In this document: one piece after another, positions 1 through 18,033 of the stretch
Position numbering within the stretch: the first letter of the stretch is position 1
Layout of the letters: every line of letters begins with the position of its first letter
DNA from: a virus
Taxonomy: Duplodnaviria > Caudoviricetes
Direction: 5' to 3' (one strand)
Virus record (IMG/VR): IMGVR_UViG_2859564202_000001
DNA: 64,000 nt
Notes under the pieces: model-generated
The model's database searches: none
Told to the model about the DNA's origin: nothing
What the model saw: the letters and a program-made list of their open reading frames with translations, nothing else
Made by a program: the position numbers and the translations under genes

Positions 1-3000
1 ACAAATCAAAGCGGTTCTTCTTATCGCCATAGGCAAGCTGATCAAGTGCTAGTGGCTTAATCTCAGTGGGTAGCTCATCATGGCTAAGCACACGCATATA
101 ACCCTGCTCATCAGAGAATTCTTCCGCGATCTTCTCCACCTGGTCAACGCCAACCGAGACACCCATACCCTTGTCATCGGCGTACATCTCCATGTACTGC
201 TGTACCCATTCATCCTTGGTGGCCTGGATAGGCTGGTGGTTCTCGTCCCTAACGACTTCCCACTCATAGCGACCTTGCTCATTCTCACCACGACGCATCT
301 TGCGACCTTGGTAGAGATCACCTACTGGTCCCATAAGAGTTTCTGCACGATAGAGCGCGTCAATCGGGTCGTGCTTCGCCTGCAGAATCGACTGCTGTGC
401 CGGTGCTGATGCAGCCATAGCTTCCTTGGTCAGACCAAGATTGCGGCACAATGCCACCATTTCCTGCTCTTTTTTACCAGCCACACCGGTAAAGAGCACC
501 TTAATTGCAGTCGCCTTCTGCGAACCCTCATAGTGGCTACGCAGCGCTTCTGGCGTTGGTTGACCTACGTCTTTAAAACCCTGCGCCGGATCAGCGCCGA
601 TATAGGTGGCATATTCCTTCAGCTTGCCAGGCGAACCTTTCGCACCCGTCTCGAAGCACTGCGCAACAGAAGCCATATGGTTTTCCATACCGTCAAAACG
701 CAAGGTCACCAAACCATCGCGGTTGGCAAAAGCCTGTGCATAGTGCTCATTGAGATCATCCATGTGTGCACGGTTGACCTCTAGCAATTCTTCGCGGCTA
801 ATCTCGCCGGCCTCGTATTCACGCTGGTAGCGGTTAAGCTCAGAGACAATAACCTTCATGTTCTCGGCCATTGCCGGATCATGGTGCTGCGCTACCTGTA
901 CATCGAGGCTGTCATGCAGAGTTAGCCCATAAAACATAGTGCCGTCCTCCATACGCTTACCATCACCAAGATCAAGCATGTTTGCCTCAACTGTGAGCCT
1001 GGACAATGCCTCCTCATGCGCCTTTTTCGGCAGATTGCCGACCAGACCTACAGAGTCACCATCGAAGTCACCGTCAAAGCTCTTCACCGACACAGGGTTG
1101 ACTGCCACACCGTGCAGATCATCATTAATAACCACACGCAAATAGCGCACACCACCATCGCGGATCACCGGATCACGCCACACCATTGCATAACCGTTAT
1201 CGAGAACGCCGAGTTCACGTGCCATCGAAGAGTTCATGGCTACTTCATCAACTGACAGGCGTGGATCACCTGTCCACACAGCAGTAGCGGAGTGTGACTG
1301 TCGCGCCGACATAAAGCCGTCCTTGAACACATTGTTCTTGGTCTCGATCCGGCTGGCGACAATATCATTAGCAATTCCATCAAAGCTTGCCTGCACCTTT
1401 TTCTGTGCTTGATCAACAAACTTCTGTGACTCGCTCAGTCGCTTTTCCGCAGCACGAGGCAACGTGCCGTGCTGCGCTTCCTCCTGGCGCAATGCGTCAA
1501 TCTTGGCTTGCTCTTCTGCCAGCTTGTAGCACGTATCAAAAATAGCCATATACCGCGTGGTGTACTCATGTCGAGAGGTACTACCGTCCGCTAAATCCTC
1601 ATCACTGCGCAAATGCGGGCTCAGTAGTGGCAACTGATACATGTCTGGATTATTAGGTGACTCTTCTAGCTGTGCACCATTGCGCAACTGTAACTGGAAA
1701 GGAATCTCCATAACACCACCAGCGCGACTGATCTGCTCAACAAAAGCTTCGCGCACCTGTGCACGATTAACACGATTATTCAGCTCACCGTTCTCATCGT
1801 AAATGCTTGGCATCTCGATGATATTGCGCTGCTCATTGGACTCGCTGAACCCCTCGCGCAACTCACCATACGGGGTGACATCAAGCCCCGTGACGCGAAG
1901 ATATTCCTGGAAGTTAGCCAATGCAGAGACGTTGTTGCCATAAAAGTGCTCCATAATCTCATGACATTCCTGGGCTTGGAGCACCCACGCCAGCTGAGAA
2001 GACGCTTTACGTCCTTGGCCCTCACGAACAGCTTCTTCATCATAGACATTGGTTTTCGCATCAACAGCCATATGCGTGACGATGAAGTTGAGATCACCAG
2101 AGGCACCTGGTTGAACACGAGTAGAACCATCATTATTCCTGAACACCACATCCTGCGGGTTGTTCATGAGCTCACGTGCCGTGCCACCATTAAAACGAGA
2201 AATGGCAGAAAACGGACTCATGACAACCTCTAGATCAGGGTTGTCTCGGAAAAACGCCACCTCTGATTCCAGCCCTGCTGCACGTGCATCAGCATCACTC
2301 ATCGCTGGATCAACAACAAGAGCGATCACACCCTTATTACCGTGAAAATCAGACAGCTTATCGCCGGCAACCAAGGGGCGCATCTCATCTTCCGTATCGC
2401 GAATAACATGGGTATTCGCAAAATCGGCAGAGACAATAATGCCATCTTCAAAGTTCCAACCGCCCAGCTGTATCATCGCAGTGCGTGCACCACCAGTCAC
2501 AGCGCTAGCCTGCATGATGTTCGAGAAAGTCATGTTCTGACGGTCATGTGGGTCAAAGCCCATCGCCCATGATTCTGGATGCGCTGCAACAGGTACTCGA
2601 TCAGCCGGATCACCAGGGGTAATCATGCCATCAGCGCCCACCTTCGCAGAAGGCAACAAATAGCGAACAGAACCCTGGTTCGCCGCCATACCAGTCATCA
2701 TGGGATCAAAGAAACCTTTACCCGCATCAACATCAAGTACAGAAATGTTACGCCCACCGGTAAGCACCAGCGCATCACGGGAGTTATCATTACGCGCATC
2801 AAAACCACGCTGCTGTGCTCGAATATCCTCCATCACATTCGCACCATCACGAATAGAGTTGTCGTAGCGCACACGCAAACTCGCAGTCTCAAGCAACGCA
2901 GCACGCCACTCATCGCTCAAACCTTCTTCGGCGCTGCGCTCGAAGAAGTCCACAGGGAAGCGATTGTCATACAGTCGCTTATATGCACTGTTGATGCTGG

Positions 3001-5851
3001 TTGTAGCACCCACTCGGGATCGCTCAGTGAACATCAAATCTTCTCGCACACGGTACACCAACGCCTCTGACATCACCTGCTCATAGCCTTTGAGCTTGGT
3101 ACGCTCTTCTAAACTCTTTGTCTCACCAGGCTTTTGTGGTACCACAGACGCGGTGTAGCCAGGGGCAAACATATAGTTCTCGCCACCATTAAATTTGGTG
3201 ACAATTTCACCATGCTCACCGCGAGTAAAAATCTGACCTATCTCACCCTGCACATGACGGGTGCGTTCACCGCGAACCTGCCCCTTACTATCTACTGCAC
3301 GACTATCCTTCGCACCAACACGTCGCTGTGCGGTCCACCGCACCACACCGTTATCGTCAACAGCAATATCGACCACATCAGCACCATTGCGGGAAATAGT
3401 CTCGGCAATGACAGTGCCAAATCGAGCCAACTGCGGGTCAAGATCAGGGTTATTAACCATTTTCTGCGCGGTCTCAGGATTAAATTTGAGCAACTGTTGA
3501 TTAATAACATCGTTATAGAATTCGTCACCGCGCAGTTCATCGCCAGTAATCGAAGTCGCTCGCAACGCGGCAATAATATCGTCATGGTTTGACCACAGGG
3601 ATTTAGCACTCGGCATGTGCTGAGCAACTGTCACCGGATTAAAACGCAAGCCGGTAACAGGATCAGGCTCCACCGTGCCGACATAATCATCAAGAACAAG
3701 GGCCGCGTGCTGACGCACACGATCCTCCACGGTCACAGCATTCATTGCTGAGGTCATCGCAGCAATCTGCTCATGATCACCATCGCGGATAGCAGCCATA
3801 TAATCATCGCGGTTAACCCCAGGGTTAAGCAGATCGGTTTCCTCACCTCGCAGCATCGCCCAATAGTCCTGCTTTATCGCCATGAGCTCATCCTCACCAG
3901 CAAAAGCCGGCATGAAGTCAGGATCATCGGCGTACTGTGCAGAAAGCGCAATCAGTTCTTCAACGCCGAGCTCTTCGGCCACACGCGCACGAGTAAGGGC
4001 GATATTGTTACCAAGCCACTCCGATGCTTTCGCTTCATTATCAAACCACTTTCCAGGACCAGCACTTCGATCACGTGCATCCTGAACGATCGAGAGCCCT
4101 TCACGCACCATGAATGCGGAACGATTCTTAGTGAAATATGCATCCTGTGCCTGCTCTAAAGCACGTGGGTGTCGAGCATTAGGCACACCAACAAGACCTT
4201 TGCCATCCTGTCGCTCAACCTCTCGACCGAGAGCAAATTTCACGAGATCGACAACTTCAGTTGGGCTTGGTTCATAATCAGTAGCCGGTGTCCACGTTCC
4301 ATCACCGTTCTCCATGCGCTCACGAGCTCGTAGACGTTCTTCCGCTGTTTGTTCGGCGGAATACTTAATCACAGTGCCAGAATCATAGACACGACCCACC
4401 CACTGTTCATTGGCGCGAGTATCAGTGAGACGAATATCAATACGGGTGCCCTCAATACGCACTTTAAGCTGTCCCGGCTCACGATCTGGCTCGATCCTAA
4501 AATCCACACCCTCATCCGACAGATACGTCAAAATAGCTTCCGAGCGCGCGATACCCTCATCAGACATGACCTTGTTGGGGTCAATTTTCTGACTCGCAAC
4601 ATCTGCGGTATCAATGAGTCCAGCACGCAGCCATGACGCTGCGGCACGGTATTCTTTAGCCGTCATAAACTGACCAATATTGGGCAGTCGCATCTGGTCA
4701 TTCTCGGTGATAGTGCGCCAGGCAATAGCTTCACCATTGACCCATTGAGTCAACGGTCGCACACCGCCTTTAGTGTCGTCTTCTCGATGAGTGCCCTCGT
4801 AAACATCATTATCTTGTAGGTGGATCGTTGCTAGATCAAGGTCCCTGATCATGCCAACACTCTCTTCGGACAGTGATAGCAGCTTGGTACCGTGCACACG
4901 GACTACTTCGCGGTCTGACCAGCGTGGATCATAAGGCGAAATAGGTAAACGACGACCACCCAGATCAGGTCCCTCAGGCAAACCATTAGGTCCAATTGCA
5001 GTGCCGACCATCTTGTCGAAACGGTGACGCAGCGCCTGGTACCCCTTTGAACCCTCACCCTCGCGAGCAATCGCACTAAACATGGGTGCTGCGTGAGGTG
5101 CCACCTCAGCAAAGGCAGCATTGACAGAGGCGAAGAATGCCTGAGTACTCCCCCGCTGCTCTACTGGTTCATAGGTTGCGAGATGCTCATCAACAAGCGC
5201 TCGGATCGCACGGCCATCAGAGGTGCTAAACTGCGACACACCAGCATCAACGTGCGTACCCCAGGTACCAAACATCTCGACACCTTCATAGAAGGCGTAC
5301 TCCCGGAAATAGCTCTCCATCGGATCAATGACAGGTAAACCCACACCCTCTGATTGGCGAACGGACTCTTGCGCGAGCGTTTGTTCAGCCTGGAATGTTG
5401 CTTGATCACGTGCCTGGAAAATAGCTGCCTGCTCTTGCTCATAAGCAGCTTGCTGTAGCGCTTGTGCCTGCTGCTGTTGGGCCACGAGATCCTGCTGCAC
5501 CAGCGCGTCATAAGATGACTTAATCGCCGTGTATTGCGGTGAATTAAGAATATTTCGCCTAGTTACCTTCGCGAACTGTGGTCGGTGTACACAGCCATGA
5601 GCTTCGGCATCAGCGGCGAAGGCATCATCGAAAGACGCAAACATGATGGCGCCATAGGTCGCTTCATCATTGAGGTCTAAGCCCTTATTGTTTGCTGCGC
5701 GCTGTTTCATCAAGGCTTCTGCTTGCCTATAGATACGCACAGCATCGTGATCACCCAGTGGAGCTTTGCCCCAGTGATCTTTTTGACCCCACTCTGAGCG
5801 CGCCATCTCAAGCGACCGTTCAAAAGCGTGTCGAAATAAAGTTTTGGACAT
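1..5851 (-). CDS. Giant single-polypeptide two-barrel (double-psi beta-barrel) DNA-dependent RNA polymerase, NCgl1702-like; 3' end runs off the window (>=1950 codons)
   Basis: ATG at 5851 follows a GGGAGG RBS, and the same frame is coding at position 1. Hand translation gives beta-like motifs DPHDRQNMTFSNIMQA, GWNFEDGIIVS, GDKLSDFHGNKGVI (2365-2327) and VVMSPFSAISRFN, then beta'-like VWRDPVIR and NPVSVKSFDGDFDGD (DFDGD at 1069-1055). All are in one frame. Not every codon was checked. Confidence 0.88.
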   Translation of the reverse strand, partial: MSKTLFRHAFERSLEMARSEWGQKDHWGKAPLGDHDAVRIYRQAEALMKQRAANNKGLDLNDEATYGAIMFASFDDAFAADAEAHGCVHRPQFAKVTRRNILNSPQYTAIKSSYDALVQQDLVAQQQQAQALQQAAYEQEQAAIFQARDQATFQAEQTLAQESVRQSEGVGLPVIDPMESYFREYAFYEGVEMFGTWGTHVDAGVSQFSTSDGRAIRALVDEHLATYEPVEQRGSTQAFFASVNAAFAEVAPHAAPMFSAIAREGEGSKGYQALRHRFDKMVGTAIGPNGLPEGPDLGGRRLPISPYDPRWSDREVVRVHGTKLLSLSEESVGMIRDLDLATIHLQDNDVYEGTHREDDTKGGVRPLTQWVNGEAIAWRTITENDQMRLPNIGQFMTAKEYRAAASWLRAGLIDTADVASQKIDPNKVMSDEGIARSEAILTYLSDEGVDFRIEPDREPGQLKVRIEGTRIDIRLTDTRANEQWVGRVYDSGTVIKYSAEQTAEERLRARERMENGDGTWTPATDYEPSPTEVVDLVKFALGREVERQDGKGLVGVPNARHPRALEQAQDAYFTKNRSAFMVREGLSIVQDARDRSAGPGKWFDNEAKASEWLGNNIALTRARVAEELGVEELIALSAQYADDPDFMPAFAGEDELMAIKQDYWAMLRGEETDLLNPGVNRDDYMAAIRDGDHEQIAAMTSAMNAVTVEDRVRQHAALVLDDYVGTVEPDPVTGLRFNPVTVAQHMPSAKSLWSNHDDIIAALRATSITGDELRGDEFYNDVINQQLLKFNPETAQKMVNNPDLDPQLARFGTVIAETISRNGADVVDIAVDDNGVVRWTAQRRVGAKDSRAVDSKGQVRGERTRHVQGEIGQIFTRGEHGEIVTKFNGGENYMFAPGYTASVVPQKPGETKSLEERTKLKGYEQVMSEALVYRVREDLMFTERSRVGATTSINSAYKRLYDNRFPVDFFERSAEEGLSDEWRAALLETASLRVRYDNSIRDGANVMEDIRAQQRGFDARNDNSRDALVLTGGRNISVLDVDAGKGFFDPMMTGMAANQGSVRYLLPSAKVGADGMITPGDPADRVPVAAHPESWAMGFDPHDRQNMTFSNIMQASAVTGGARTAMIQLGGWNFEDGIIVSADFANTHVIRDTEDEMRPLVAGDKLSDFHGNKGVIALVVDPAMSDADARAAGLESEVAFFRDNPDLEVVMSPFSAISRFNGGTARELMNNPQDVVFRNNDGSTRVQPGASGDLNFIVTHMAVDAKTNVYDEEAVREGQGRKASSQLAWVLQAQECHEIMEHFYGNNVSALANFQEYLRVTGLDVTPYGELREGFSESNEQRNIIEMPSIYDENGELNNRVNRAQVREAFVEQISRAGGVMEIPFQLQLRNGAQLEESPNNPDMYQLPLLSPHLRSDEDLADGSTSRHEYTTRYMAIFDTCYKLAEEQAKIDALRQEEAQHGTLPRAAEKRLSESQKFVDQAQKKVQASFDGIANDIVASRIETKNNVFKDGFMSARQSHSATAVWTGDPRLSVDEVAMNSSMARELGVLDNGYAMVWRDPVIRDGGVRYLRVVINDDLHGVAVNPVSVKSFDGDFDGDSVGLVGNLPKKAHEEALSRLTVEANMLDLGDGKRMEDGTMFYGLTLHDSLDVQVAQHHDPAMAENMKVIVSELNRYQREYEAGEISREELLEVNRAHMDDLNEHYAQAFANRDGLVTLRFDGMENHMASVAQCFETGAKGSPGKLKEYATYIGADPAQGFKDVGQPTPEALRSHYEGSQKATAIKVLFTGVAGKKEQEMVALCRNLGLTKEAMAASAPAQQSILQAKHDPIDALYRAETLMGPVGDLYQGRKMRRGENEQGRYEWEVVRDENHQPIQATKDEWVQQYMEMYADDKGMGVSVGVDQVEKIAEEFSDEQGYMRVLSHDELPTEIKPLALDQLAYGDKKNRFDL

Positions 5852-6276
5852 ACTAAAGTCCTCCCTTTTCTTTATTCTTTTGTCATATCACTAATGGACA
5901 TGCGGATGTGTGTAGTTACATCCATAATCATACTCTAAAACTTAATCGTTTTTAAAGTACTTTTAGAACTAGAAATGAAAGTTAAAAAACTTAGGTCTTT
6001 AGAGCACCGACAACCCCTCATCCGAGCTCAAAAATTTGTACTCGGCTGCCCTTGCGCATTAGGATTCTCTCAACTAAGACATGTTCACCACGGCACCAAA
6101 AAGACACCATTTTATGCCGCACATTTGTTCACTACATTCACTGAAAAATCTTGTTGACCACTGACAACTAGCAAGAAGCGGCAAATATGTGCGGCTTGGC
6201 ATAAACTGTGTCCATCGGTACCTGTGTAATAGACACACGGTAAACACGCACAAGATAAAACATTGCGAGATTTTTC

Positions 6277-7368
6277 ATGAGTACAAAACCCACTATTGTG
6301 TCCACATTTTCTGGTTGCGGTGGCCTCGATCTTGGCCTCCAAGAGGTCGGATTCGACCCCATTTGGGCCAACGACTTCTCAGAAGAAGCAGTCCAAACCT
6401 ATAAGCACAACATCGGTGACCACATTGTTCACGGCGACATCACTGAAATTGATCCGTTTACTGATGACACCATCCCTGACGGCGATCTCGTCACCGGCGG
6501 CTTCCCGTGCCAGGACTTCTCCATGATCTGGAAGCGTCCTGGACTCGACGGCAAGCGTGGCACCCTGTACCAAAACTTCCGTGACTTTGTTGCAGCAAAG
6601 AAGCCTAAAGCCTTTATCGCAGAAAACGTGAAGGGCCTACTCACTGCTAACCAGCACAAGGCTATTAAGACCATCATTGAAGACCTCGAAGCTGTTGAGC
6701 CTGGCTACATCGTCAAGCCTCGCCTGTACAACTTCGCTGAATACGGTGTCCCACAATTCCGCGAACGTGTGCTCATTGTTGGCATTCGCCGTGACACCGG
6801 CTTTGATTTCAAGCACCCAGCTCCTACCCATGGCCCTCGCGGTGACATGCCGTATAAGACTGCCGGCGAAGCGCTCAAAGGCGTGAAGGATGTCCCCACA
6901 AACAACAACCACATGAAGATCATGCCTCGCACCGTTGAAGTGCTTAAGCGCATCCCTGAGGGCGAAAACTTCACCGCGATCCCCAAAGATGACCCCTACT
7001 ACGTCAAGGGCATGATTAGTCACGTTTACCGTCGCTTGCACCGTGATGAGCCATCCAAAACCCTTATCGCCGGTGGCGGCGGGGGTACATGGGGATACCA
7101 TTATGAAGAAAATCGAGCATTGACCAACCGCGAGCGGGCTAGAATTCAATCGTTCCCCGATGACTTTGAGTTTTTGGGATCAAACACCGAAGTCCGCCGC
7201 CAAATCGGTAATGCTGTTCCTCCTGTAGGTATGCACGCTGTGGGTGAGCGACTGATGAACCTGTACACCGGGAATTACACTCCCGTCGATCTAGAGGAAC
7301 AGCACGCGTACCTGCAGACGCTCTCCATTAAGGAACGTCTCGCGCTGGCTGATCAGGAAGCTGATTAA
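6277..7368 (+). CDS. cglIM: DNA (cytosine-5) methyltransferase M.CglI
   Basis: C5-MTase motifs FSGCGG, GGFPCQDFS, ENVKG, PQFRERV and QIGNAVPP. Confidence 0.95.
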   Translation: MSTKPTIVSTFSGCGGLDLGLQEVGFDPIWANDFSEEAVQTYKHNIGDHIVHGDITEIDPFTDDTIPDGDLVTGGFPCQDFSMIWKRPGLDGKRGTLYQNFRDFVAAKKPKAFIAENVKGLLTANQHKAIKTIIEDLEAVEPGYIVKPRLYNFAEYGVPQFRERVLIVGIRRDTGFDFKHPAPTHGPRGDMPYKTAGEALKGVKDVPTNNNHMKIMPRTVEVLKRIPEGENFTAIPKDDPYYVKGMISHVYRRLHRDEPSKTLIAGGGGGTWGYHYEENRALTNRERARIQSFPDDFEFLGSNTEVRRQIGNAVPPVGMHAVGERLMNLYTGNYTPVDLEEQHAYLQTLSIKERLALADQEAD

Positions 7369-7376
7369 GTAGATAT

Positions 7377-8453
7377 ATGAAGCCCACCGTTAATGTTGTG
7401 TTCAATGCGCATCACCCCAAAGATACGCAGCCGTTGGATAAGTTCTTCGATAAAGAACTTAAAGACACACATCATCTCGATATAACGGTGGGTTATATCA
7501 GTGAGAAATCACTACAATATTTGCTTCTTATTGCAGGCACTCACCCCGACCTCACCATCACACTCACCTGTGGAATGCACGCTCGTGAAGGCATGACTGC
7601 TGCCCAACTGCATCATGCGCGAGTGCTCCATGACTACTTAAGCGACCATGATCGAGGCGGGGTGTTCGTTATTCCCCGATTGCGTTATCACGGCAAAATC
7701 TATCTTTTCCACAAGAACCAGCACACAGATCCTATTGCTTATATCGGTAGCGCTAACCTCTCAGCCATCGTTCCTGGGTACACCTCTACATTCGAGACCG
7801 GCGTCATCTTAGACCCCGCACCTGAAGATCTCGTGCTTCATCTCAACCGTGATGTCGTACCCCTATGTGTCCCCATTGACACCGCGCATGTCCCCATCAT
7901 TAAAGATCAAGAATCCCCGATGAAGCACGTCGCTGAAGCAACAGCTGTGTCCACCTCTGATGTTGTTGCCATCATGTCCAGCCCATTTACTTATAGTTTT
8001 GACCTTAAACTCAAAGCCACTGCCAGCAGCAACCTCAATGCTCATAACTCAGGCGGTGGCGCGCGCAAACAGAAAAACGGTAGCTTCCTTGCACGCAATT
8101 GGTATGAGGGCGAAATCATTGTCGGTGTCGAGACAACAAGACTCCCAGGTTACCCACAAAACAAATCCGAATTCACTGCGGTCACTGATGACGGCTGGTC
8201 ATTTGTTTGCAAAATCAGCGGAGGAAACGGAAAGAACCTACGCAGCAAAGGTGACCTGTCCATCCTCGGTACGTGGTTAAAGTCTCGATTCATTGAACAA
8301 GGTGCCCTGGAATACGGCGAGGATGCCACCCAAGAAAACATCGACCGTTTTGGGAGAACACATATGACCATGCGCTATCACCCAGATTTCGATGTGTGGT
8401 CATTCGATCTCAGCCAAACCCCGAAGCCTTCGACACAGATTGGGCAGGATTAA
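7377..8453 (+). CDS. cglIR: PLD-family (NgoFVII-like) restriction endonuclease subunit R.CglI
   Basis: HGKIYLF...YIGSANLS PLD motif; starts 8 bp after the MTase. Confidence 0.9.
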   Translation: MKPTVNVVFNAHHPKDTQPLDKFFDKELKDTHHLDITVGYISEKSLQYLLLIAGTHPDLTITLTCGMHAREGMTAAQLHHARVLHDYLSDHDRGGVFVIPRLRYHGKIYLFHKNQHTDPIAYIGSANLSAIVPGYTSTFETGVILDPAPEDLVLHLNRDVVPLCVPIDTAHVPIIKDQESPMKHVAEATAVSTSDVVAIMSSPFTYSFDLKLKATASSNLNAHNSGGGARKQKNGSFLARNWYEGEIIVGVETTRLPGYPQNKSEFTAVTDDGWSFVCKISGGNGKNLRSKGDLSILGTWLKSRFIEQGALEYGEDATQENIDRFGRTHMTMRYHPDFDVWSFDLSQTPKPSTQIGQD

Positions 8454-8454
8454 T

Positions 8455-10353
8455 TTGTCACACCACACTCACCTCAATAACTACATCACGAGCTTGAGTG
8501 ATAACGCTGATCTCCGTGAAAAAGTCACCGCAACCGTAGACGCTTTCCGCCATACCGTCATGGATGACTTCGACTACATCAGTGATCAACAAGTCCTGCT
8601 TTATGGCGATGTCCAAAGCGGTAAAACCTCACACATGCTGGGAATTATCGCAGATTGCCTCGACAGTACGTTTCACACCATTGTTATTCTGACCTCGCCT
8701 AACACACGGCTCGTGCAACAAACATACGACCGTGTTGCCCAAGCATTTCCAGATACTTTGGTGTGCGACCGTGACGGATACAATGATTTCCGTGCGAATC
8801 AAAAGAGCCTCACCCCGCGAAAATCTATCGTAGTCGTCGGAAAAATACCTGCAGTTCTTGGTAATTGGTTACGCGTCTTTAACGACAGTGGCGCACTTTC
8901 TGGACACCCTGTACTCATTATTGATGACGAAGCAGATGCGACAAGTCTCAACACCAAAGTAAATCAGTCTGATGTTTCGACCATTAACCACCAGCTCACT
9001 AGCATAAGAGACCTTGCCACAGGATGCATCTACCTTCAGGTCACAGGTACACCTCAAGCGGTGCTTCTTCAAAGCGACGATAGCAACTGGGCAGCGGAAC
9101 ATGTGCTTCACTTCGCACCTGGTGAGAGCTACATCGGTGGTCAACTTTTCTTTTCTGAGCTCAACAACCCTTATCTACGACTTTTCGCTAATACCCAATT
9201 TGACGAGGATTCTCGCTTCAGCGACGCCATTTACACCTATCTCTTAACCGCAGCACTGTTCAAACTTCGCGGTGAAAGCTTGTGTACCATGCTCATTCAC
9301 CCCAGCCACACTGCATCCAGTCATAGAGACTTCGCGCAAGAAGCCCGCCTCCAACTCACTTTCGCCTTCGAGCGATTCTATGAACCAATGATTCAGCACA
9401 ATTTCCAACGTGCTTATGAACAGCTCGCACAAACTGACAGCAACCTGCCACCCTTGAGAAAAATTCTTAACATTCTTGGTGGCATGGAAGATGACTTCTC
9501 CATCCACATCGTCAATAGCGACAACCCGACTGTTGAGGAAGATTGGGCTGATGGTTATAACATTATTGTCGGTGGCAACTCGCTTGGGCGCGGTTTAACA
9601 TTCAACAACTTGCAAACCGTTTTCTACGTGCGCGAATCCAAGCGACCACAAGCAGACACCCTGTGGCAGCACGCCCGCATGTTTGGCTACAAACGCCACA
9701 AAGACACCATGCGTGTGTTCATGCCGGCCACTATTGCTCAAACCTTCCAAGAGGTCTATCTCGGCAACGAAGCTATTAAAAATCAGCTCGATCATGGCAC
9801 GCATATCAACGACATTCGGGTCATTTTAGGTGATGGCGTCGCACCTACTCGTGCCAATGTTCTCGACAAACGCAAAGTTGGAAACCTCAGCGGTGGCGTC
9901 AACTACTTTGCCGCTGATCCTAGAATCAAGAATGTCGAAGCACTCGACAAAAAACTCTTGGCCTACTTAGACAAGCACGGTGAGGACTCCACCATCGGTA
10001 TGCGCGCGATAATCACCATTCTCAACGCCTTTACTGTAGACCCCAACGATCTCGACCTCGCGACCTTCAAGGCTGCGCTCCTTGACTTTGAACGCAACCA
10101 ACCTCATCTCACAGCACGTATGGTGCTGCGAACAAACCGCAAAGTCAATCAGGGTACAGGCGCCCTGCTCTCCCCTACTGATCAAGCTCTCAGCCGTGCA
10201 GAAGTCGCACACCCATTATTGATCCTATACCGCATTGAAGGTGTTAACGATGCTGCTGCGCAACGAGGTGAACCTACGTGGTCAAGCGACCCTATCTGGG
10301 TGCCTAATATTAAACTCCCTGGTCAACGTCAATTCTGGTGCGTAGACGGCTAA
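8455..10353 (+). CDS. cglIIR: SF2 helicase-like/Z1-domain ATPase subunit H.CglI
   Basis: GDVQSGKT Walker A, IIDDEAD, and Z1 motifs GGNSLGRGLT and DTLWQHARMFGY; probable TTG start at 8455 directly after the cglIR stop. Confidence 0.9.
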   Translation: MSHHTHLNNYITSLSDNADLREKVTATVDAFRHTVMDDFDYISDQQVLLYGDVQSGKTSHMLGIIADCLDSTFHTIVILTSPNTRLVQQTYDRVAQAFPDTLVCDRDGYNDFRANQKSLTPRKSIVVVGKIPAVLGNWLRVFNDSGALSGHPVLIIDDEADATSLNTKVNQSDVSTINHQLTSIRDLATGCIYLQVTGTPQAVLLQSDDSNWAAEHVLHFAPGESYIGGQLFFSELNNPYLRLFANTQFDEDSRFSDAIYTYLLTAALFKLRGESLCTMLIHPSHTASSHRDFAQEARLQLTFAFERFYEPMIQHNFQRAYEQLAQTDSNLPPLRKILNILGGMEDDFSIHIVNSDNPTVEEDWADGYNIIVGGNSLGRGLTFNNLQTVFYVRESKRPQADTLWQHARMFGYKRHKDTMRVFMPATIAQTFQEVYLGNEAIKNQLDHGTHINDIRVILGDGVAPTRANVLDKRKVGNLSGGVNYFAADPRIKNVEALDKKLLAYLDKHGEDSTIGMRAIITILNAFTVDPNDLDLATFKAALLDFERNQPHLTARMVLRTNRKVNQGTGALLSPTDQALSRAEVAHPLLILYRIEGVNDAAAQRGEPTWSSDPIWVPNIKLPGQRQFWCVDG

Positions 10354-10431: not shown

Positions 10432-11955
10432 TTAAGCATCTTCAATACGCCTAAAGGCTCGCGCGACTTCTTTATCAAAGTGACCCTGGGCGAGATCACG
10501 CCAATGCGGAAGCTCCACCAGCATGATGCGGAATGCTCGGGTGGTCTTATATTTACCCATAGCAGACAGCGGATCATCCTCTGTGCCAGATAGAGCTTCT
10601 TCACCCTCAGAGTAGACACGCGACTGCTCCACTCCTGCTTGCGCGCGCATAAGTGCAATATCTTCCTGCGACAACGCCTCAATCAACACAGTGCCATCGA
10701 CAGCATTAACCAAGCCGTTGTTAGCAGTCACCCGGAAATTCGGATCTTGAGCAAAAGCGTGCAGGCTCTCATCATAGGCTGCAGTGAGCTCATCTTCGAG
10801 TGAGTCCTGCAGGATGTGGCCGAATTGATCAGCCAGCATATCTCGTGACACCTTGCCTTCGGCATAACGCTTCAACCGCATGTCAGCGAGCTTATGTTCT
10901 GCATTCTCCTGATCGTGAATGAATTCATCATTGACCTCTGCTTCTTCAGACAGAGATTTCTTTTTCACCTTCGTACCAGTAGCCACGGGGAAGCCCTGAG
11001 CACTGTCTTCGAACTCATCATCAAAAACGTCATATTCAGACTCCATGAAATCACGAGCATTCATGACAGACTCATCCCCCTCGTCATAATCCGGCGTGTC
11101 ATCGTACTCATCTTTCGCGATCATCGTGTCCACGATGTCCATGATTTCTGCTGAATACACATCCATATCCAGGCGTGCAATATCAGAGTCATCGAGCCCA
11201 GTCGCCTTTTTATAAATATCGACGGCACGCTGAGTACGAATCGACTGCGCCATGCGCTTTTCCAGCATCGCCATAAAGTCCGGTGCATTTTGATTCACAT
11301 CGAATTCATTAGCGCTCGACAGTGTTGGAATAGTCTGCAACGAGTATTCGCGACCCGGTTGGATAATCTGGTTAGCAAACAACATGAACGACATCGGCCA
11401 AATCGTTTCATTGCGTGACCACACCGGATACTGACCCGCACGGAAGACGATGGCGTTCTGCGATGGCAGAGTATTTAGGTCATTATAAGACACCACCGGC
11501 TCTTTTTCAGTTGCAGACGTGTACGACACTTTACCCTCGGTGCGCATAACTAACTGTGCCAAGTCACGGGTTACGGTCTTTGAATTTCTGCGTACAACAT
11601 GTCGCTCACCTGACCAATCCACCAACGTCTTAATCATTGTTTCGTCTGTGGATTTCAAGAAGATAATGTTGGACGTGTTGTGGGTCGGGATCATATCGTC
11701 AGTGATGTAGAGATGGTCACGGTCGGCAATGCTGATGCATTGCACGGTATCGCGGCGGGAGAATTCTACAGAGACGATTTCATTGTCTGCTGCGGGCACG
11801 TCGAGACGTGCCCGATCTGCTGGATCGAAGTTGTCGAGGATCTCTGGCGCCCGCGCTGCGACACCAGGCAGAAACACCTTATCCCCTCGTGCCAGCATCG
11901 CTTTAAGCTCTGCCGTGGTGACGATTCTGCGCTCGCCAGCAAGTGTTTGCGTCAT
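10432..11955 (-). CDS. C-terminal precursor of the fractured VirD4/TraG-like coupling protein: IntC (aa 1-93) plus C-extein (414 aa)
   Basis: Intein blocks F/G (VQCISIADRDHLYITDDMIPTHN) then +1 Thr, followed by the T4CP-like TSNIIFLKSTDETMIKTLVDWSG; has its own RBS (GAAGGGG). Confidence 0.85.
   Translation of the reverse strand: MTQTLAGERRIVTTAELKAMLARGDKVFLPGVAARAPEILDNFDPADRARLDVPAADNEIVSVEFSRRDTVQCISIADRDHLYITDDMIPTHNTSNIIFLKSTDETMIKTLVDWSGERHVVRRNSKTVTRDLAQLVMRTEGKVSYTSATEKEPVVSYNDLNTLPSQNAIVFRAGQYPVWSRNETIWPMSFMLFANQIIQPGREYSLQTIPTLSSANEFDVNQNAPDFMAMLEKRMAQSIRTQRAVDIYKKATGLDDSDIARLDMDVYSAEIMDIVDTMIAKDEYDDTPDYDEGDESVMNARDFMESEYDVFDDEFEDSAQGFPVATGTKVKKKSLSEEAEVNDEFIHDQENAEHKLADMRLKRYAEGKVSRDMLADQFGHILQDSLEDELTAAYDESLHAFAQDPNFRVTANNGLVNAVDGTVLIEALSQEDIALMRAQAGVEQSRVYSEGEEALSGTEDDPLSAMGKYKTTRAFRIMLVELPHWRDLAQGHFDKEVARAFRRIEDA
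11677..11955 (-). mobile_element. C-terminal half of a split class 3 intein (93 aa)
   Basis: Block F Cys (VQC), block G Thr-His-Asn, +1 Thr. Confidence 0.85.
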
Positions 11956-12181
11956 ACTATAAACCCCTTCAATTAAATCAAGTAATTAATATACTAACTT
12001 AATTGAGTTTATTTTTACGGTTTAATTTACTCTAAGCGAAGACGCCCGGAATCACCATAAGCACCGTTTCCAGACGCAGAAACTAATTGAGCATATTGTA
12101 AAATATAGCTATGCTGACAATGATTCCGCCACGACCATCTACACAGCTGACAGATAGAAGCGTTGAGAAGTGTTTTAAGTG

Positions 12182-12901
12182 TTAGCGATTAAAGCGCCCA
12201 CAAATATAACCAACAGCAAATCCAGCAAGAGCACTTGTTGTTGCGCTCTCGACAGGACGGGTGGCTATATCCTCGGCAGGACTATCGGGGCTATCAGCAT
12301 TATCTTCGTCATAAAAATCAGTGAGTATGCCATCAATAAAGTCATCCATGATTGATGTGATGAAACTGGCGACTGCAATGAGCAGCAGCGATACGCACAT
12401 AATCCATGCAGGTGCATCACTAAACGTATTAGGTGTGCTTGGGACGATGAATCCAAATGTAACAGAGTAGACAAGTCCGGGAATTAGTAGCGCATAAATA
12501 GCAATTAATACTACATAAGCAATAACAACACTGAACCTAGAAGAAGTCTTGTTGACGTAAAGCGCCATGCGACGTGCGATATGCGCGAACTCATGGCGAC
12601 CGTGCACTACTCTATACATTGTTATCGCCATGTAGATCGCCAGGATTACTACGGATACAATCATTGCAGTCGAAGTTAGCCCTTCGACCAATGGAGTTGG
12701 CGCAATCATCAAAACCAGCAGCAGCGCTCTAATCTTGCGGACGAATAATGTGCGCAACATACTTCCTGCAATTTGCATATTGCTAGGATCGTCTGTGCCC
12801 CTGCCACGTCCGCCCTTGAGGTAGTGGTCTTCAATTCTATTGGTATTAGTCACTGGACTTTTTTCTCCTTGTGTAAATGTTCCTGAAAATAGTAGACTCA
12901 T
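12182..12901 (-). CDS. Hypothetical integral membrane protein (about 4 TM segments)
   Basis: Hydrophobic segments and an acidic tail; start uncertain. Confidence 0.65.
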   Translation of the reverse strand: MSLLFSGTFTQGEKSPVTNTNRIEDHYLKGGRGRGTDDPSNMQIAGSMLRTLFVRKIRALLLVLMIAPTPLVEGLTSTAMIVSVVILAIYMAITMYRVVHGRHEFAHIARRMALYVNKTSSRFSVVIAYVVLIAIYALLIPGLVYSVTFGFIVPSTPNTFSDAPAWIMCVSLLLIAVASFITSIMDDFIDGILTDFYDEDNADSPDSPAEDIATRPVESATTSALAGFAVGYICGRFNR

Positions 12902-13194
12902 TCGACTTTTAGGAATGGCAATTAACTCTGTCGATGAAACTGTGAAGTAAAAGCAGTTTCAGTAAAAGCACATCTATACGTGCTCTCACTATCACTGTGC
13001 GCGCATCATAAAAACGCGCAAGCACTATATAAATATCAACAGTTTCTGCACAATAATCAGAAAACAATAAATAAGCTGGTCACCACAGCAACTCACCCCA
13101 CCCGGTCCCCCTTTTTTCCTCACTGACACCGGAGCCGCCTCAAGCACCACGCTGCAATCACAGAAGCTAGTTGAGCATATTGTAGAATATAACT

Positions 13195-15015
13195 ATGCCA
13201 ACACTGCTTATTGACACCCATCCGCATCTTGCAGCGCAACTTCTTGACCCTGGTTTAGGTGAACTTCTTACAGCCGGTTCCAACAAAAAAGTGCAGTGGC
13301 AGTGCCCTAAGCACTCCAATCACATCTGGACGGCCTCGGTTAATAACCGCACCAATGCAAAGAACCCGCGCTGCCCCTATTGTGCCGGAACACGAGTGTT
13401 GGCAGGTTTTAATGATCTCGCCACCACTCACCCGCATCTTGCTGTACAGCTGGTTGACCAAGATATTGCCGTCACCATTTCCGCTGGTTCTGGCAAAAGA
13501 CAACTGTGGCAGTGTGTAGTAAACCCAAAACACCAGTGGTTGGCTACGCCAAATAATCGCACGAGTACTAAATCTGCGAGTTCTGGTTGCCCCTACTGTG
13601 CCAACCGAGCGGTATTAGTCGGTGACAATGACTTTGCAACAACCTACCCCGAACTTGCAGCGCAATTAGTAGATCAATCTGCAGCGACAACCTTTACAGC
13701 CGGCCACAACAAGCCTGTTGAGTGGATCTGTTGCAAGCATGAACCACCATTTATCTGGAAAACCTCACCAATTTTGCGTGTACGACAGAACACCCAGTGC
13801 CCTGTGTGCTCAGAGCGAACTGTGGCGCCGGCGCTTAATGATCTTGCAACCACTCACCCTAAACTTGCCGAGCAAATTGCAGATCCTCAACCAAGTGGTG
13901 TGAGCGCCGCGGCCATTATCCCCACCATTAGCAGGGGTTCCCATACGCAATTAACATGGCAATGTTCTAAAAATCATGACCACCAATGGGTCGCCACAGT
14001 AAAGGATCGTGTTCGCGGAACAGACTGCCCCACCTGCGCAAATACAGGAACTTCACGCAAAGAGGCTGAACTTATTGAGGTCATCCGTGCATTATTCCCA
14101 AACACTGATGTCCAGCAAGGTGCGCTCATTAATGGACGTACCGGTAATCAAGGTGCATCGCCGTCAACCGATGTACTCATACCGTCCAAAAATCTCGCTA
14201 TCGAGTTCAACGGCCTGTACTGGCACTCTGAGCTTTTCATCAAAGATAAGCATTATCATGCGAACAAATCAGCTCTCGCAGAACAAGCCGGTGTGCAGCT
14301 CATTCATGTGTGGGAGGACGACTGGAATCTTCGCCGCGACATTGTGATCCGCATGATCGCACACAAGCTTCATGCAACCCATAACCTCAGTGCTGTTTTG
14401 CCTACCGAAACTACTGACTCACGTGTGGCAACCACCGCTTTCGCCCGTACACTCACACTGTCGGTGGTCTCTGGTTCACGCGCTGCTGCATTCTTGAACA
14501 GCAACCATATTCAGGGTGCTGTCTCGGCCACTAAGCACTTTGCCCTGTGCGACAACAACGACGATATTCGAGCACTCCTGTCGGTGCGCTCACCAAAAAA
14601 CAATGCCCGCATGTATCGCAAAAAAGGCACATGGGAAATCCAGCGCTATGCGACACTCGGTAACGTCCCTGGCGGTTTTACTAGGCTGCTGAAGTTTGCC
14701 GAGCACACACTCAACGAACACAGCACAGTACTCAAGCAATGGATCTCATTTTCTGCTGCTGATGTCTCTGACGGCAGCCTGTATCGAACTGCCGGTTTTA
14801 CCGCCGAGCAACAGCTTGCACCGGATTATCGCTATGTCGGTGGCGCAACAGGTTGGCGCCGAACACCCAAAGAAAGCTTCCAGCGCAAACGCTTTAGAGA
14901 CGACCCAGCGTTGCTATGGAACGAATCTTGGACAGAGCACGAAGCAGCGCTCAACAACGAGCTCTACAGAATCTACGATGCCGGCAAAACCCGGTGGGTT
15001 AAAAATGTTGCTTGA
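13195..15015 (+). CDS. Free-standing putative homing endonuclease: four zinc-ribbon repeats, a Vsr-like nuclease and a Hef-like C-terminus
   Basis: Repeated W.C...H.W...R...CP.C units; DVLIPSKNLAIEFNGLYWH...LIHVWEDDW; located between the intein halves in opposite orientation. Confidence 0.8.
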   Translation: MPTLLIDTHPHLAAQLLDPGLGELLTAGSNKKVQWQCPKHSNHIWTASVNNRTNAKNPRCPYCAGTRVLAGFNDLATTHPHLAVQLVDQDIAVTISAGSGKRQLWQCVVNPKHQWLATPNNRTSTKSASSGCPYCANRAVLVGDNDFATTYPELAAQLVDQSAATTFTAGHNKPVEWICCKHEPPFIWKTSPILRVRQNTQCPVCSERTVAPALNDLATTHPKLAEQIADPQPSGVSAAAIIPTISRGSHTQLTWQCSKNHDHQWVATVKDRVRGTDCPTCANTGTSRKEAELIEVIRALFPNTDVQQGALINGRTGNQGASPSTDVLIPSKNLAIEFNGLYWHSELFIKDKHYHANKSALAEQAGVQLIHVWEDDWNLRRDIVIRMIAHKLHATHNLSAVLPTETTDSRVATTAFARTLTLSVVSGSRAAAFLNSNHIQGAVSATKHFALCDNNDDIRALLSVRSPKNNARMYRKKGTWEIQRYATLGNVPGGFTRLLKFAEHTLNEHSTVLKQWISFSAADVSDGSLYRTAGFTAEQQLAPDYRYVGGATGWRRTPKESFQRKRFRDDPALLWNESWTEHEAALNNELYRIYDAGKTRWVKNVA

Positions 15016-15178
15016 TTCTGCAGATTAGTTACTGAAACTGAATTAATGTAGGCTGCGTATGGCCTATTTTTGCTGGTTGTACAGTGTTTTTCCGCATTCG
15101 TAAGGGATGAGTGACCTGTCAGGTTGCCACTTCTAACCAAATAATAAGTAATCAATTTTAAAGGAAAAGAATTAAAGC

Positions 15179-15558
15179 ATGTCTAAAAATACAAATATTT
15201 CGCCATTGCTCTCCTAGCACCCATCCTCGGCTTAGTCGCTGCAGGTTGCTCCACTACAGCTGAAGAGCCAGCTGCAACTCAGGTAGAAGAAACAACAGTC
15301 GCCCGAGTTGAACACGATACTTACGACACTATTGCTAACCAGCTACAAGATGCCGGTGTCTATGACGATGTGGCCTTTGCCGAAGGCTACTACCAGGAAA
15401 TGGCTGAGGTTGTATGTGAAGCACGCGAAGAGGGTATCACCCACGAGGACACCCTGCATATGCTCAATGACATGATGGCAATGAAACGATCTGGCGAAGT
15501 ACTCAATACGCTCGCTGATGTTCTCTATGCAAATGAATGCCCTGAATATCGAATCTAA
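15179..15558 (+). pseudogene. Small lipoprotein gene frameshifted in an A5 run (15185-15189)
   Basis: AAAGGA RBS and ATG 15179. Adding one A gives MSKKYKYFAIALLAPILGLVAAG|C (lipobox), in frame with ORF 15370-15558. Confidence 0.7.
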
Positions 15559-15597
15559 ATTGTTGGTTCACTCTGCATAGACACAACACCACACAAC

Positions 15598-15641
15598 AAA
15601 AAACAACCCCCTAAGGATAATCCTCAGGGGGTTGTTCTGTT
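15598..15641. terminator. Bidirectional terminator downstream of the IntN-bearing exon
   Basis: aacaaccccct...agggggttgtt hairpin with A/T tails. Confidence 0.8.
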
Positions 15642-15649
15642 TCGACTCA

Positions 15650-15969
15650 TTATGCTGCGCTTGCTGCATCCTGCTCGGCAGGAACCACAATCACTTCCCA
15701 CAAATGCTCATCACAAGCCTCTGTGGTTGAGCCATCTTTACGTGTCACAGTAAATACATCTCGCTCACCCTGTGGGAACACACCGTCAATCTCGCTGACT
15801 GTCCCCTTTGGGGTAAGCACCTTCATACCTGCTTCTGCTTCGCCCATCGTGACCCATCCATCAGGTGTTGCGATCTTCGCCGTCAACGGCTGCGCATTAC
15901 CTTGGAGAATCTTGTCTGAGGCTTCGCCATACACCTGAGTCAACTGCTGCAGTGTCTGCAGAATCAATG
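15650..15969 (-). CDS. VirD4-like gene exon 3: end of N-extein (TLILQTLQQLTQVYGEASDKILQGN) plus IntN
   Basis: In frame with exon 2 after removing the group II intron (A+CA = Thr); T4CP motif Q...QL...YG. Confidence 0.85.
15653..15895 (-). mobile_element. N-terminal half of a split class 3 intein (81 aa)
   Basis: Block A AQPLTAKIATPDGW starts with Ala; block B TEACDEHLWEV contains Trp. Confidence 0.85.
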
Positions 15970-18033
15970 ATGTCAATAGGTAACGCTTTGATCTTATCTC
16001 CACGTTTTCCCCTGACCCACACCGTACGTGCGACTTTCACCGCATACGGCGCTCCATCACTAGAGTTCTTATCCCTCCGGTGACTTGTGACCATTACTCC
16101 TGCTCTCATTACAAGAGCTATCAACGCTTCGATCACTACTTTTCAACACTCGTTCGACTGCTTATTATTCTTCGTCAGTCTACGCAAAACCGCTATCCAA
16201 AAACTTCTTCCTGAAACGGACCACTTACTAATAACTCGCCAATTGATTCTGCTGTTCTCGCCGTATATGGGATCTCCAAAAGTGTTAGCTCTCGGACTAC
16301 AGTAAACGCTCGTTTTCGTCTGTCGTGCTCTTGTTGGATCGCGAAACGACTCTCTCCACCGAAATACTCAACTGGTCTAAAATGCTGCTCACCTTGGCAC
16401 TCAATCAACAACCAGGGCTCGGTATCCTTGAAAACCAAAAAATCATAACTCAGTGGTCCTCCACCAACCCCCACCAAACCATCGAAAGTCTTTTGAGATT
16501 CAAACTGAAAATCATTCTTTAAAAGAAAGTCCCTGACATGTGACTCTTGGATTGATCCGTGCAAACAACCACACGATTGGCTAATACCCTGCCTCAACAT
16601 AATCCCAGCAACAGCATTTTCGGAGCCGCACATACATCGGCACAACCACATTTGAGACCGCCCACCACCAGGGTAAAACCTGTCATCCGTACGAGACAGC
16701 ACAGTCCACTGGTTAAATACCTTGCCAGTCAAATCTTCAAAAACAGCAGTTTCTCGTCGCTGTTCTATGCGATAGCACCCGCACGATATTGACCGACCCC
16801 GCAACAAAGACTGTTCCAATACGTCCCTTGTCGCTCCACACTCGCACTCGCAAAACCACGCCTTAGATAAGCGACCCCACTGCAGCACGTCCTCACCACG
16901 TCGAACAACAGACCATCGACCAAATGTGGAACCAACTAAATCCCTATTCTTTGAAAGCGACTCGATTTTTAGACAACCACACGATTTCGAATCACCATTC
17001 TTCAGTGACCCCGCAGCAAGATCTTTCTCAACACCGCAAGTACATCTGCAATGCCACATGGTGGTTTTCCTTCCTGTGGAGGAAACCCTACTTTCCGCTC
17101 GATCTATGACAGTCCATCGCCCAAACACCTGACCTATGAGATCCTGTAAGTTCTTACCCTGCATCCTTTTACGAACAGTCTCATAACGACGACAACCGCA
17201 CGATGCGGTTTCATCAGCGTTCTTAAATCTAGAGGCCGGTGCATCATACTCCCTGCCACAATCACAAAGACATTGATACCGAACCTCAATCTTGCCACTT
17301 TTGTTTACACGATCGTTAGTGCGATAAAGAACTTTTATATGCCCGAAAGTTTTACCGGATAAATCATTAAACTTTCGTCGCCGATGTTGTTGCGGTGCTC
17401 GTATTGTCATCTCAAACTACTTTCAAATATATACCTTTATTTGTATATATTACCCCTTTTAATTAATTAAACAAGCTTTCAGCCTTGATAACAAGTGGTC
17501 CATTTCACTATAAAGTTATTAAATATTGGCAGCTATTTCACGCCGAATATCTTTCCCAGTTCCGTTTCACCTATCCGTTACATGCTGCCCTTAGGTGCTC
17601 ACTCTGACCCTGCTCGCCTCGGATGTGCCTGTAACACATCAGGGAGGTTCATAAATTCAAGTCTTACTTGTCCCCTACGAGCACTAACGCATTTCTACGC
17701 CGAACAATTCAAGAGCCGTACATTCGCAAGTTCGTCAGTTATCTCACTCGATAACATTCTCACCCTAGGCAGTTTCTGGACACCCGGCATATCAGCGGCA
17801 CATCAGATCACTCTGACGCTTTCGTAGCTACTGTGATCAAATCCCAGCACCTTTACGACCGACCTTCTGCCGACTCTAACGGGCTTTATACAGTTCTATT
17901 TTGTTCAAACCGCATACCGTAGCTTGGTGTGCACATTTCAGGGCGTTACTCCGTCATTCTGTGTATCAATGAAACAGTTTCTTGCAACTTTAAGCTGCAA
18001 GAGCGTAGTTTTTCGCTACGCAACTGGTCGCAC
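15970..18033 (-). mobile_element. Group II intron (2064 nt) with a non-RT ORF
   Basis: 5' GTGCG at 18033. Domain V GAGCGCCGTATGCGGTGAAAGTCGCACGTACGGTGTG (about 16054-16018, CGC triad), a domain VI stem, and 3' AT at 15970. Removal restores GQEQQF-T-LILQTLQQL. Confidence 0.92.
16193..17410 (-). CDS. Group II intron-encoded putative homing endonuclease (four CxC/SCGC repeats plus a Vsr/DUF559-like nuclease)
   Basis: Four DLxGxxFGxWxV...CxCxCG...SCGC repeats; YDFLV...LIECQGEQH...HDRRK; no RT (YADD) motif. Confidence 0.82.
   Translation of the reverse strand: MTIRAPQQHRRRKFNDLSGKTFGHIKVLYRTNDRVNKSGKIEVRYQCLCDCGREYDAPASRFKNADETASCGCRRYETVRKRMQGKNLQDLIGQVFGRWTVIDRAESRVSSTGRKTTMWHCRCTCGVEKDLAAGSLKNGDSKSCGCLKIESLSKNRDLVGSTFGRWSVVRRGEDVLQWGRLSKAWFCECECGATRDVLEQSLLRGRSISCGCYRIEQRRETAVFEDLTGKVFNQWTVLSRTDDRFYPGGGRSQMWLCRCMCGSENAVAGIMLRQGISQSCGCLHGSIQESHVRDFLLKNDFQFESQKTFDGLVGVGGGPLSYDFLVFKDTEPWLLIECQGEQHFRPVEYFGGESRFAIQQEHDRRKRAFTVVRELTLLEIPYTARTAESIGELLVSGPFQEEVFG

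Follow-up and report, generated by a model that had tools for sequence, protein, structure and literature searches.

The predicted single-chain RNA polymerase NCgl1702 of Corynebacterium glutamicum and its place beside a conserved DNA-transfer module

The 64,000-nucleotide stretch of record IMGVR_UViG_2859564202_000001 (the window) carries at its left edge a long minus-strand frame which, judged by its length and neighbouring genes, is NCgl1702 (cg1995) of Corynebacterium glutamicum, a gene of the CGP3 island and the founding member of its family. The protein and its beta/beta' fusion nature are already known, and what is added here are structural models, a closer view of the N-terminal region and of the distribution of the family and, as the most informative result, the synteny context. 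NCgl1702 is very probably an active two-barrel polymerase. As to what it serves, we consider it an even call that it is the element-owned DNA-dependent RNA polymerase (RNAP) of a DNA-transfer module, present in CGP3, that also includes a MobL relaxase and a giant VirD4-type coupling protein (T4CP).

The NCgl1702 Frame

The frame runs from position 5851 to position 2 and stays open over the 1950 codons that lie within the window. Its end was taken from the nearest genome, which has the identical sequence (100% of sampled 31-mers in common); there the frame extends 219 codons past the left edge of the window to a stop, for a total of 2169 amino acids (aa). The ATG at 5851 is preceded by a strong Shine-Dalgarno (SD) sequence, GGGAGG. 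An earlier note, made from the window sequence alone, had pointed out that the track of open reading frames (ORFs) missed the gene; a track of complete ORFs would do so because the ORF leaves the window at its left edge.

The gene was identified as NCgl1702 because the length of 2169 aa matches that given in PMC2919709 and because the CglI restriction-modification genes are adjacent. NCgl1702 has been published as a 2169-aa beta::beta' fusion (PMC2919709, PMC7824862) in which two barrels, switch 2 and the funnel were found (PMC2919709). PMC2919709 credits the discovery, a prediction made in 2003, to Iyer, Koonin and Aravind. The protein described there and the one analyzed here do not differ in sequence, both adjoining cglIM in CGP3 and both having two barrels and no flap insert.

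The earlier note had reported beta-type motifs and a beta'-type DFDGD in one frame and had taken the product for a single-chain NCgl1702-like polymerase. It turned out to be NCgl1702 itself. Translation placed all four motifs in the frame as listed below, and no stop codon was found between WNFEDG, GDKLSDFHGNKG, SPFSAISRFN and DFDGD in the translated frame, an internal stop being one of the findings that the note had named as refuting its reading.

2..5851, minus strand: NCgl1702/cg1995 ORF, first 1950 of 2169 codons, the remaining 219 being past the left edge of the window
2441-2458, minus strand: WNFEDG, aa 1132-1137, checked by translation
2330-2365, minus strand: GDKLSDFHGNKG, aa 1163-1174, checked by translation
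2189-2218, minus strand: SPFSAISRFN, aa 1212-1221, checked by translation
1055-1069, minus strand: catalytic DFDGD with the metal-binding aspartate triad, aa 1595-1599, checked by translation and conserved in 60 homologues

Catalytic Residues and Predicted Fold

Eight residues are listed as universal to two-barrel RNAPs (PMC2919709). All eight are present in NCgl1702 and at least 97% conserved in the alignment of 60 homologues: D1136, K1165 and K1173 in the beta-type barrel, and R1559, P1561, D1595, D1597 and D1599 in the beta'-type barrel. R1219 in the beta-type barrel region is invariant too. Further towards the C-terminus a QxxLQAKH segment is largely invariant (Q1820, L1823, Q1824 and K1826, with a near-invariant histidine) and, by its sequence, reads as the trigger loop. 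D1136 and G1163, which belongs to the GDK lysine motif, are only 26 residues apart, and because of this short distance the flap (SBHM) insert must be absent.

A family profile built from 47 members matched beta'/Rpb1 chains with E 6e-11. The match covered residues 242-491 of E. coli beta', which correspond to the lid, the rudder, switch 2 and the NADFDGD barrel, and a second match fell on the SGARGS-type loop of beta'. The curated models were approached but not passed: Pfam Rpb2_6 scored 20.1 bits against a cutoff of 23.4 (E 4e-4) and Rpb1_2 19.5 bits against 25.3 (E 1e-3), while NCBIfam scores were about 15 bits against cutoffs above 800.

Structure prediction, which the earlier note had also called for, gave confident models with a two-barrel polymerase fold. 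The AlphaFold model of aa 1001-2010 had a pLDDT of 89.9 and a pTM of 0.87, and a Foldseek search with this core model ranked bacterial beta' on top with E 7e-12. Structural alignment with VIA-align gave the following scores for the two halves and for single-chain enzymes.

aa 1326-1985: Pol I A190, Z 15.7 with 536 aligned; Rpb1, Z 15.5; archaeal A', Z 15.3; M. tuberculosis beta', Z 13.0 with 509 aligned
aa 1027-1310: phiKZ non-virion RNAP (nvRNAP) beta, Z 12.4; plastid beta, Z 12.4; AR9, Z 12.1; Xanthomonas beta, Z 11.9
single-chain enzymes: QDE-1 over the whole core, Z 13.7; P74 gp62, Z 10.8; P23-45 gp96, Z 10.6; crAss gp66, Z 6.7
other polymerases: ZmRDR2, Z 9.9; PolD, Z 8.5

With these E-values from profile and Foldseek and Z-scores of up to 15.7, the co-occurrence of the motifs exceeds chance. 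The domain layout of the protein follows from the same comparisons.

5321..5851, minus strand: N-terminal extension, partly Q/A-rich, aa 1-177; most members begin at about aa 178
3452..5320, minus strand: family-specific N-terminal region, aa 178-800; confident fold, no known-fold match
2702..3439, minus strand: beta1/protrusion-like domain, aa ~805-1050 (VIA-align)
1922..2773, minus strand: beta-type double-psi beta-barrel region without flap, aa ~1027-1310 (VIA-align and residues of the 60 homologues)
2..1876, minus strand: beta'-type half, aa ~1326-1950 in the window and on to ~1985 (profile, Foldseek and VIA-align)
632-646, minus strand: GAKGS F-loop in the beta'-type half
368-385, minus strand: trigger-loop-like LQAKHD in the beta'-type half

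The beta'-type half further contains a lid/rudder/switch-2 region, the barrel with R1559, P1561 and the DxDxD motif, the funnel and a bridge-helix-like helix.

The earlier note had seen no recognizable domain in the N-terminal 1000 residues or so. This no longer holds for aa ~805-1050, where the model (aa 151-1050, pLDDT 87.8) has a protrusion-like domain. Over one common range VIA-align scored it with Z 7.2 against plastid beta, 6.4 against Xanthomonas beta, 6.3 against Thermus beta1, 6.2 against AR9, 5.6 against vaccinia and 5.5 against M. tuberculosis B1B2. Each of these scores is middling, but the assignment is credible because ten independent RNAPs agree. For aa 178-800, on the other hand, the note was right: no known fold was found, with no Pfam or NCBIfam match, no Foldseek match below E 0.1 and no usable match in the ESM Atlas. 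Sigma-28 (VIA-align Z 3.9) and the MotA C-terminal domain (Z 3.8) came up for this region as weak, scattered rows and were not used.

A profile of aa 178-800 found 290 clusters at E ≤0.001 among 1.84 billion representatives clustered at 50% identity. In the best 150 of the 290 clusters the region lay at or near the N-terminus of proteins of mostly 1800-3100 aa, and the few short matches among these 150 may be fragments. As judged from these matches, aa 178-800 is a hallmark of the family and no borrowed domain. The ends of NCgl1702 are more variable. The N-terminal extension is absent from most members, several others carrying one of 160-280 aa, and the C-terminal ~160 residues (18% P, 14% Q and 13% G) are disordered and missing from most members.

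NCgl1702 thus has the eight universal residues and both double-psi beta-barrels, with the fold of the two largest RNAP subunits, that define the two-barrel superfamily. It shares with the cellular enzymes (RpoB/RpoC, Rpb2/Rpb1) the active-site residues, both barrels, the beta1/protrusion, lid, rudder, switch 2, funnel, bridge helix and trigger-loop histidine, with structural Z-scores of 12-16. It differs from cellular multisubunit RNAPs in being a single chain with beta fused ahead of beta', in lacking the flap, in having an extra N-terminal region of ~620 aa and in matching Pfam models only below the curated thresholds; the lobe was not detected, and alpha, omega and sigma partners are not known for it. 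The RNAPs of phages (phiKZ/AR9 nvRNAP, crAss-like gp66, P23-45 gp96 and P74 gp62; Z 6.7-12.4) are likewise diverged two-barrel enzymes that are independent of the host polymerase. These are viral and some are packaged in the virion, whereas the genes of the NCgl1702 family reside next to that of a conjugative coupling protein, on plasmids and islands.

An alternative is that NCgl1702 is an RNA-templated polymerase akin to the RNA-dependent RNA polymerases (RdRPs) of eukaryotes, or a DNA polymerase like PolD, with a role in conflict or defence. NCGL1702-like enzymes have been grouped with RdRPs and YonO for lack of the SBHM flap insert (PMC7824862), an insert that NCgl1702 indeed lacks, and the scores of QDE-1, ZmRDR2 and PolD given above would fit such a reading. 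However, the beta' half aligned with cellular largest subunits over ~500 residues and with higher Z, and the family profile aligns NCgl1702 to beta' from the lid through the rudder to the switch-2 region. Switch 2 and the funnel, both present in NCgl1702, are absent from RNA-dependent enzymes (PMC2919709). The conserved neighbours are DNA-transfer genes, with no defence genes among them. We regard an RNA-templated enzyme or a PolD-like one as quite unlikely, and from the features of the protein and its neighbours we infer an RNA rather than a DNA product, a DNA template and the genes that would be served.

Distribution of the Family

In 2010, 98% of NCgl1702 was reported to be without any relative (PMC2919709). 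A word-indexed search now found at least 443 homologues with 42-56% identity in the core, and those with organism names came from Gordonia, Rhodococcus, Arthrobacter, Streptomyces and other actinobacteria. On these counts, and with the 290 clusters for the N-terminal region, the view of a protein without relatives is no longer valid. By length (2169 aa), CglI neighbours and lack of the SBHM insert, the last being the criterion used in PMC7824862, NCgl1702 belongs to the family that bears its name.

Among 185,579 species genomes 194 loci were found, nearly all of them actinobacterial, with a few in Clostridia, Lachnospiraceae and Coriobacteriia. The family is sporadic: of the 301 genomes sampled from the same order, only one had the gene. 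Carriers include plasmids of Rhodococcus fascians (270 kb), Gordonia sp. KTR9 (pGKT2) and Streptomyces (639 kb). Relatives with ~25% identity are carried by plasmids of Staphylococcus (55-65 kb) and of Lactococcus. No match to the family was found among 50,697 phage records.

In two loci, L077 (Arthrobacter sp. Hiyo8) and L080 (Streptomyces toxytricini), the RNAP frame is split into 503 + 1370 aa and 398 + 1648 aa, respectively; the splits may be due to a frameshift, an assembly error or decay.

Synteny with a Transfer Module

In 76 of 79 loci the RNAP gene had a large T4CP gene (median 1349 aa) on the same strand as its immediate upstream neighbour; only two 5.5-kb contigs and one distant homologue departed from this. 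The earlier note had remarked that the polymerase is co-oriented with conjugation genes, and the linkage is stronger than could be seen from the window. Other upstream partners were homologues of an 831-aa protein (71 of the 79 loci) and a ClpB-like AAA+ ATPase (58 loci), while a protein of 600-730 aa was encoded downstream in 73 loci. In all five genomes examined a MobL relaxase gene lay ~12 kb upstream on the same strand. Neither the 722-aa nor the 831-aa module partner had a Pfam, NCBIfam or PDB-sequence match.

The same arrangement is carried by plasmids. The order on pGKT2 is mobL, LysM protein, AAA ATPase, 866-aa protein, T4CP (1412 aa), RNAP, 112-aa protein and 778-aa protein. Transfer of pGKT2 from Gordonia to Rhodococcus and Nocardia has been reported by Jung et al. 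(2011), whom PMC5640721 cites for it. On a 55.5-kb plasmid of S. aureus the order is mobL, AAA ATPase, 727-aa protein, T4CP, two further genes, RNAP-like protein, topoisomerase and lysozyme. The RNAP-like protein of this plasmid (1787 aa, E 7e-64) keeps every motif at ~25% identity.

Besides the MobL relaxase and the giant VirD4-type protein, the module was seen to contain a ClpB-like double AAA+ ATPase and a lysozyme. Among ORFs of at least 150 aa no VirB4-type ATPase was seen with Pfam, either in the window (1-64000) or in loci L083 and L085. For pGKT2 (locus L082, NC_018580.1, 20001-25808) the RefSeq start of the RNAP gene is placed ~450 codons late, giving a coding sequence (CDS) of 1487 aa; a small opposite-strand ORF is annotated over the true N-terminus, and the protein match begins from locus position 20001.

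The synteny also bears on a second alternative, in which NCgl1702 is a transfer-coupled primase or early polymerase working on the single strand that is transferred, either in the recipient or at the donor's transfer site. It would make primers for the complementary strand or first transcripts, and might be exported through the coupling protein. There are known cases of enzymes delivered with DNA, namely the conjugative primases Sog and TraC and the virion RNAPs of N4, crAss-like phages and P23-45. The position of the gene right after the T4CP gene in the 76 loci, and near it in Staphylococcus plasmids, would suit this role, as would the conserved ClpB-like AAA+ ATPase, a possible unfoldase, and the disordered, P/Q/G-rich C-terminus. 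The 57 annotated features of the 55.5-kb Staphylococcus plasmid do not include a primase. The absence of a flap and of a promoter-opening apparatus would matter less on single-stranded templates, and the single-chain two-barrel polymerase QDE-1, which aligned over the whole core, also uses single-stranded DNA. On the other hand, NCgl1702 keeps the lid, rudder, bridge helix, trigger loop and protrusion, features of processive transcription that go beyond the needs of priming. The C-terminal tail is not conserved across the family, CGP3 has an annotated primase of its own, priP, and the sequence analysis gave no sign of protein export. Sog (ColIb-P9) and TraC (RP4) are large and encoded in transfer regions, and a functional analogy is possible if NCgl1702 primes the incoming strand; their folds are unrelated to that of NCgl1702 (Toprim or archaeo-eukaryotic primase versus double-psi barrels), and no Toprim or archaeo-eukaryotic primase domain was found in NCgl1702 with Pfam or NCBIfam. 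We consider a transfer-coupled enzyme of this kind possible, if rather unlikely.

The CGP3 Copy and Its Surroundings

In the window the module and the genes around it are arranged as follows.

5852..6276, no strand: AT-rich intergenic region from which the RNAP gene and cglIM diverge, holding a promoter-like site and the SD
5956-5927, minus strand: promoter-like site, -35 TTTAAA and -10 TATGAT
6277..10353, plus strand: CglI restriction-modification cassette (C5 methylase, NgoFVII-type nuclease and Z1/DEAD protein), between the T4CP and RNAP genes
10414-10379, minus strand: strong terminator, between the T4CP gene and the CglI cassette
10432..22645, minus strand: VirD4-type coupling-protein gene in four pieces (21353-22645, 17993-19672, 15653-16003 and 10435-11955)
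22701..27123, minus strand: 831-aa protein and ClpB-like double AAA+ ATPase, module partners
31075..33843, minus strand: MobL relaxase of the same module, with homologues in the five genomes examined, pGKT2 and the Staphylococcus plasmid

The combination of C5 methylase, NgoFVII-type nuclease and Z1/DEAD protein is the make-up of CglI (PMC4267653), and cglIR-cglIIR-cglIM correspond to cg1996-cg1998 within CGP3 (cg1890-cg2071) (PMC8002715). The T4CP and RNAP genes are here separated by this 4.1-kb cassette, compared to ~170 nucleotides (nt) in other loci, and the four T4CP pieces map onto what related loci have as a single ORF of 1300-1750 aa, placed immediately upstream of their RNAP gene.

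The T4CP-RNAP spacer is a repeated insertion site. Inserts of 0.9-4.6 kb, some with a gene for a DUF4379-type endonuclease, were seen at ~5200-7600 in six further loci (L003, L008, L012, L040, L055 and L069). CGP3 has two genes for ClpB-like double AAA+ ATPases, of which that at 25336-27123 alone lies in the conserved module; homologues of the second (L002:6764-8731) occur downstream in 47 loci, encoded by the opposite strand. Two intergenic repeats were also noted in the window: a direct repeat of ~170 nt (56827-56993 and 62546-62713, 87-97% identical, ~5.7 kb apart) and a 52-nt repeat with a long perfect hairpin (45169-45220 and 49255-49306, 94% identical, 4.1 kb apart).

The 425-bp region upstream of the RNAP gene has 39% GC compared to 52% in the gene. 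The cg1995 mRNA, listed as 'hypothetical protein', was increased by log2 +3.27 (p 6e-13) in the SOS/prophage-induced subpopulation (PMC6173762 Table S3), so that the gene is induced together with CGP3.

In at least 12 actinobacterial genera an imperfect palindrome, GTATGATCTATAnATAGTTATG, is found ~45 nt before the RNAP start codon (L013:7459-7564, L014:7474-7579, L019:7471-7576, L035:7471-7576, L046:7402-7507, L079:7438-7543 and others). Short complementary G/C runs lie on either side, and ahead of it, after the T4CP stop, there is a GC hairpin with a T-run. The window has only a loose counterpart (5890-5940, minus strand). The palindrome may represent an operator, a hairpin or part of a promoter. 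A search for a structured leader upstream of the gene with RNAalifold gave no consensus structure, and the covariation of a leader hairpin drawn by hand was not above that of shuffles (50/500).

The state of the island raises the question of whether the gene is a relic in C. glutamicum, its frame intact and its function lost within a degenerate island with broken transfer machinery. The T4CP gene in four pieces, the restriction-modification cassette next to it, the description of CGP3 as cryptic in the literature and the presence of the gene in only one of the 301 sampled genomes all point that way. Yet 2169 codons without a stop, invariant residues that are all kept and a strong SD are unlike decay, and the mRNA is induced. 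We find a relic improbable. These arguments against a relic also led us to reject the reading of the gene as a pseudogene.

Proposed Role and Implications

The polymerase that we propose, owned by the element and linked to its transfer module, would make RNA on element DNA upon induction or transfer of the element, with no need for the host polymerase. The N-terminal region and the protrusion would replace the missing flap and sigma apparatus in the handling of template or promoter. We put transcription of element genes as the main role at a little short of even, and priming or action on the transferred strand at clearly less.

A precedent for the transcription of element genes is YonO of Bacillus phage SPbeta, which the earlier note did not mention. 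Like NCgl1702 it is a mobile-element protein that combines the two barrels in one chain, and its characterisation in 2017 proved it to be a processive DNA-dependent RNAP that serves the late genes of its own element (PMC5467207). A relationship between the two was not detectable. YonO has 839 aa and is phage-borne, while the NCgl1702 family resides on plasmids and in relaxase/T4CP modules, and NCgl1702, set against YonO, keeps a region that can be aligned with the lid, rudder and switch 2 of beta' as well as a protrusion-like domain. Comparison of YonO with the family profile by hhalign gave a probability of 0.08 and E 0.63, from a single-sequence template of limited sensitivity, and the phage records searched held no relative of NCgl1702.

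Several points weigh against an element-owned RNAP for the transfer module. The RNA-exit flap and a sigma-like partner are missing, which makes initiation on double-stranded DNA hard to account for. A promoter motif of a private regulon was not found: there was no multi-copy motif in the window, and the conserved upstream motif did not recur in the flanking sequences of the 79 loci. With the CglI cassette in between and the T4CP gene in pieces, the gene in C. glutamicum may no longer work as it did in its original setting. The gene also appears dispensable for the host, since the prophage-free strain MB001, which is without it, serves as a working host. Finally, the literature searched held no biochemical or genetic test of the NCgl1702 family, in agreement with the earlier note, which was aware of no biochemical characterisation.

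A more speculative reading, to which we give a small chance, is that the enzyme does for conjugation what a virion RNA polymerase does for a phage, being passed to the giant coupling protein and entering the recipient with the single strand. The conserved ClpB-like ATPase would perhaps unfold the polymerase before it is handed over to the T4CP, and in the recipient the first RNAs, be they primers or early transcripts, would come from this enzyme and not depend on the polymerase of the new host. If this were true, such a polymerase would help elements to cross genus boundaries.

The founding member of this family was predicted more than 20 years ago, and no assay of it was found in the literature searched. 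The synteny makes the polymerase a regular part of the relaxase/coupling-protein module that actinobacterial plasmids and islands carry, and more distantly plasmids of Staphylococcus and Lactococcus, and it adds to the signs of a conjugative element within the 'prophage' CGP3. The question for the bench thereby becomes sharper, namely why a DNA-transfer system has a cellular-type RNA polymerase of its own, and pGKT2 offers a tractable model for addressing it.

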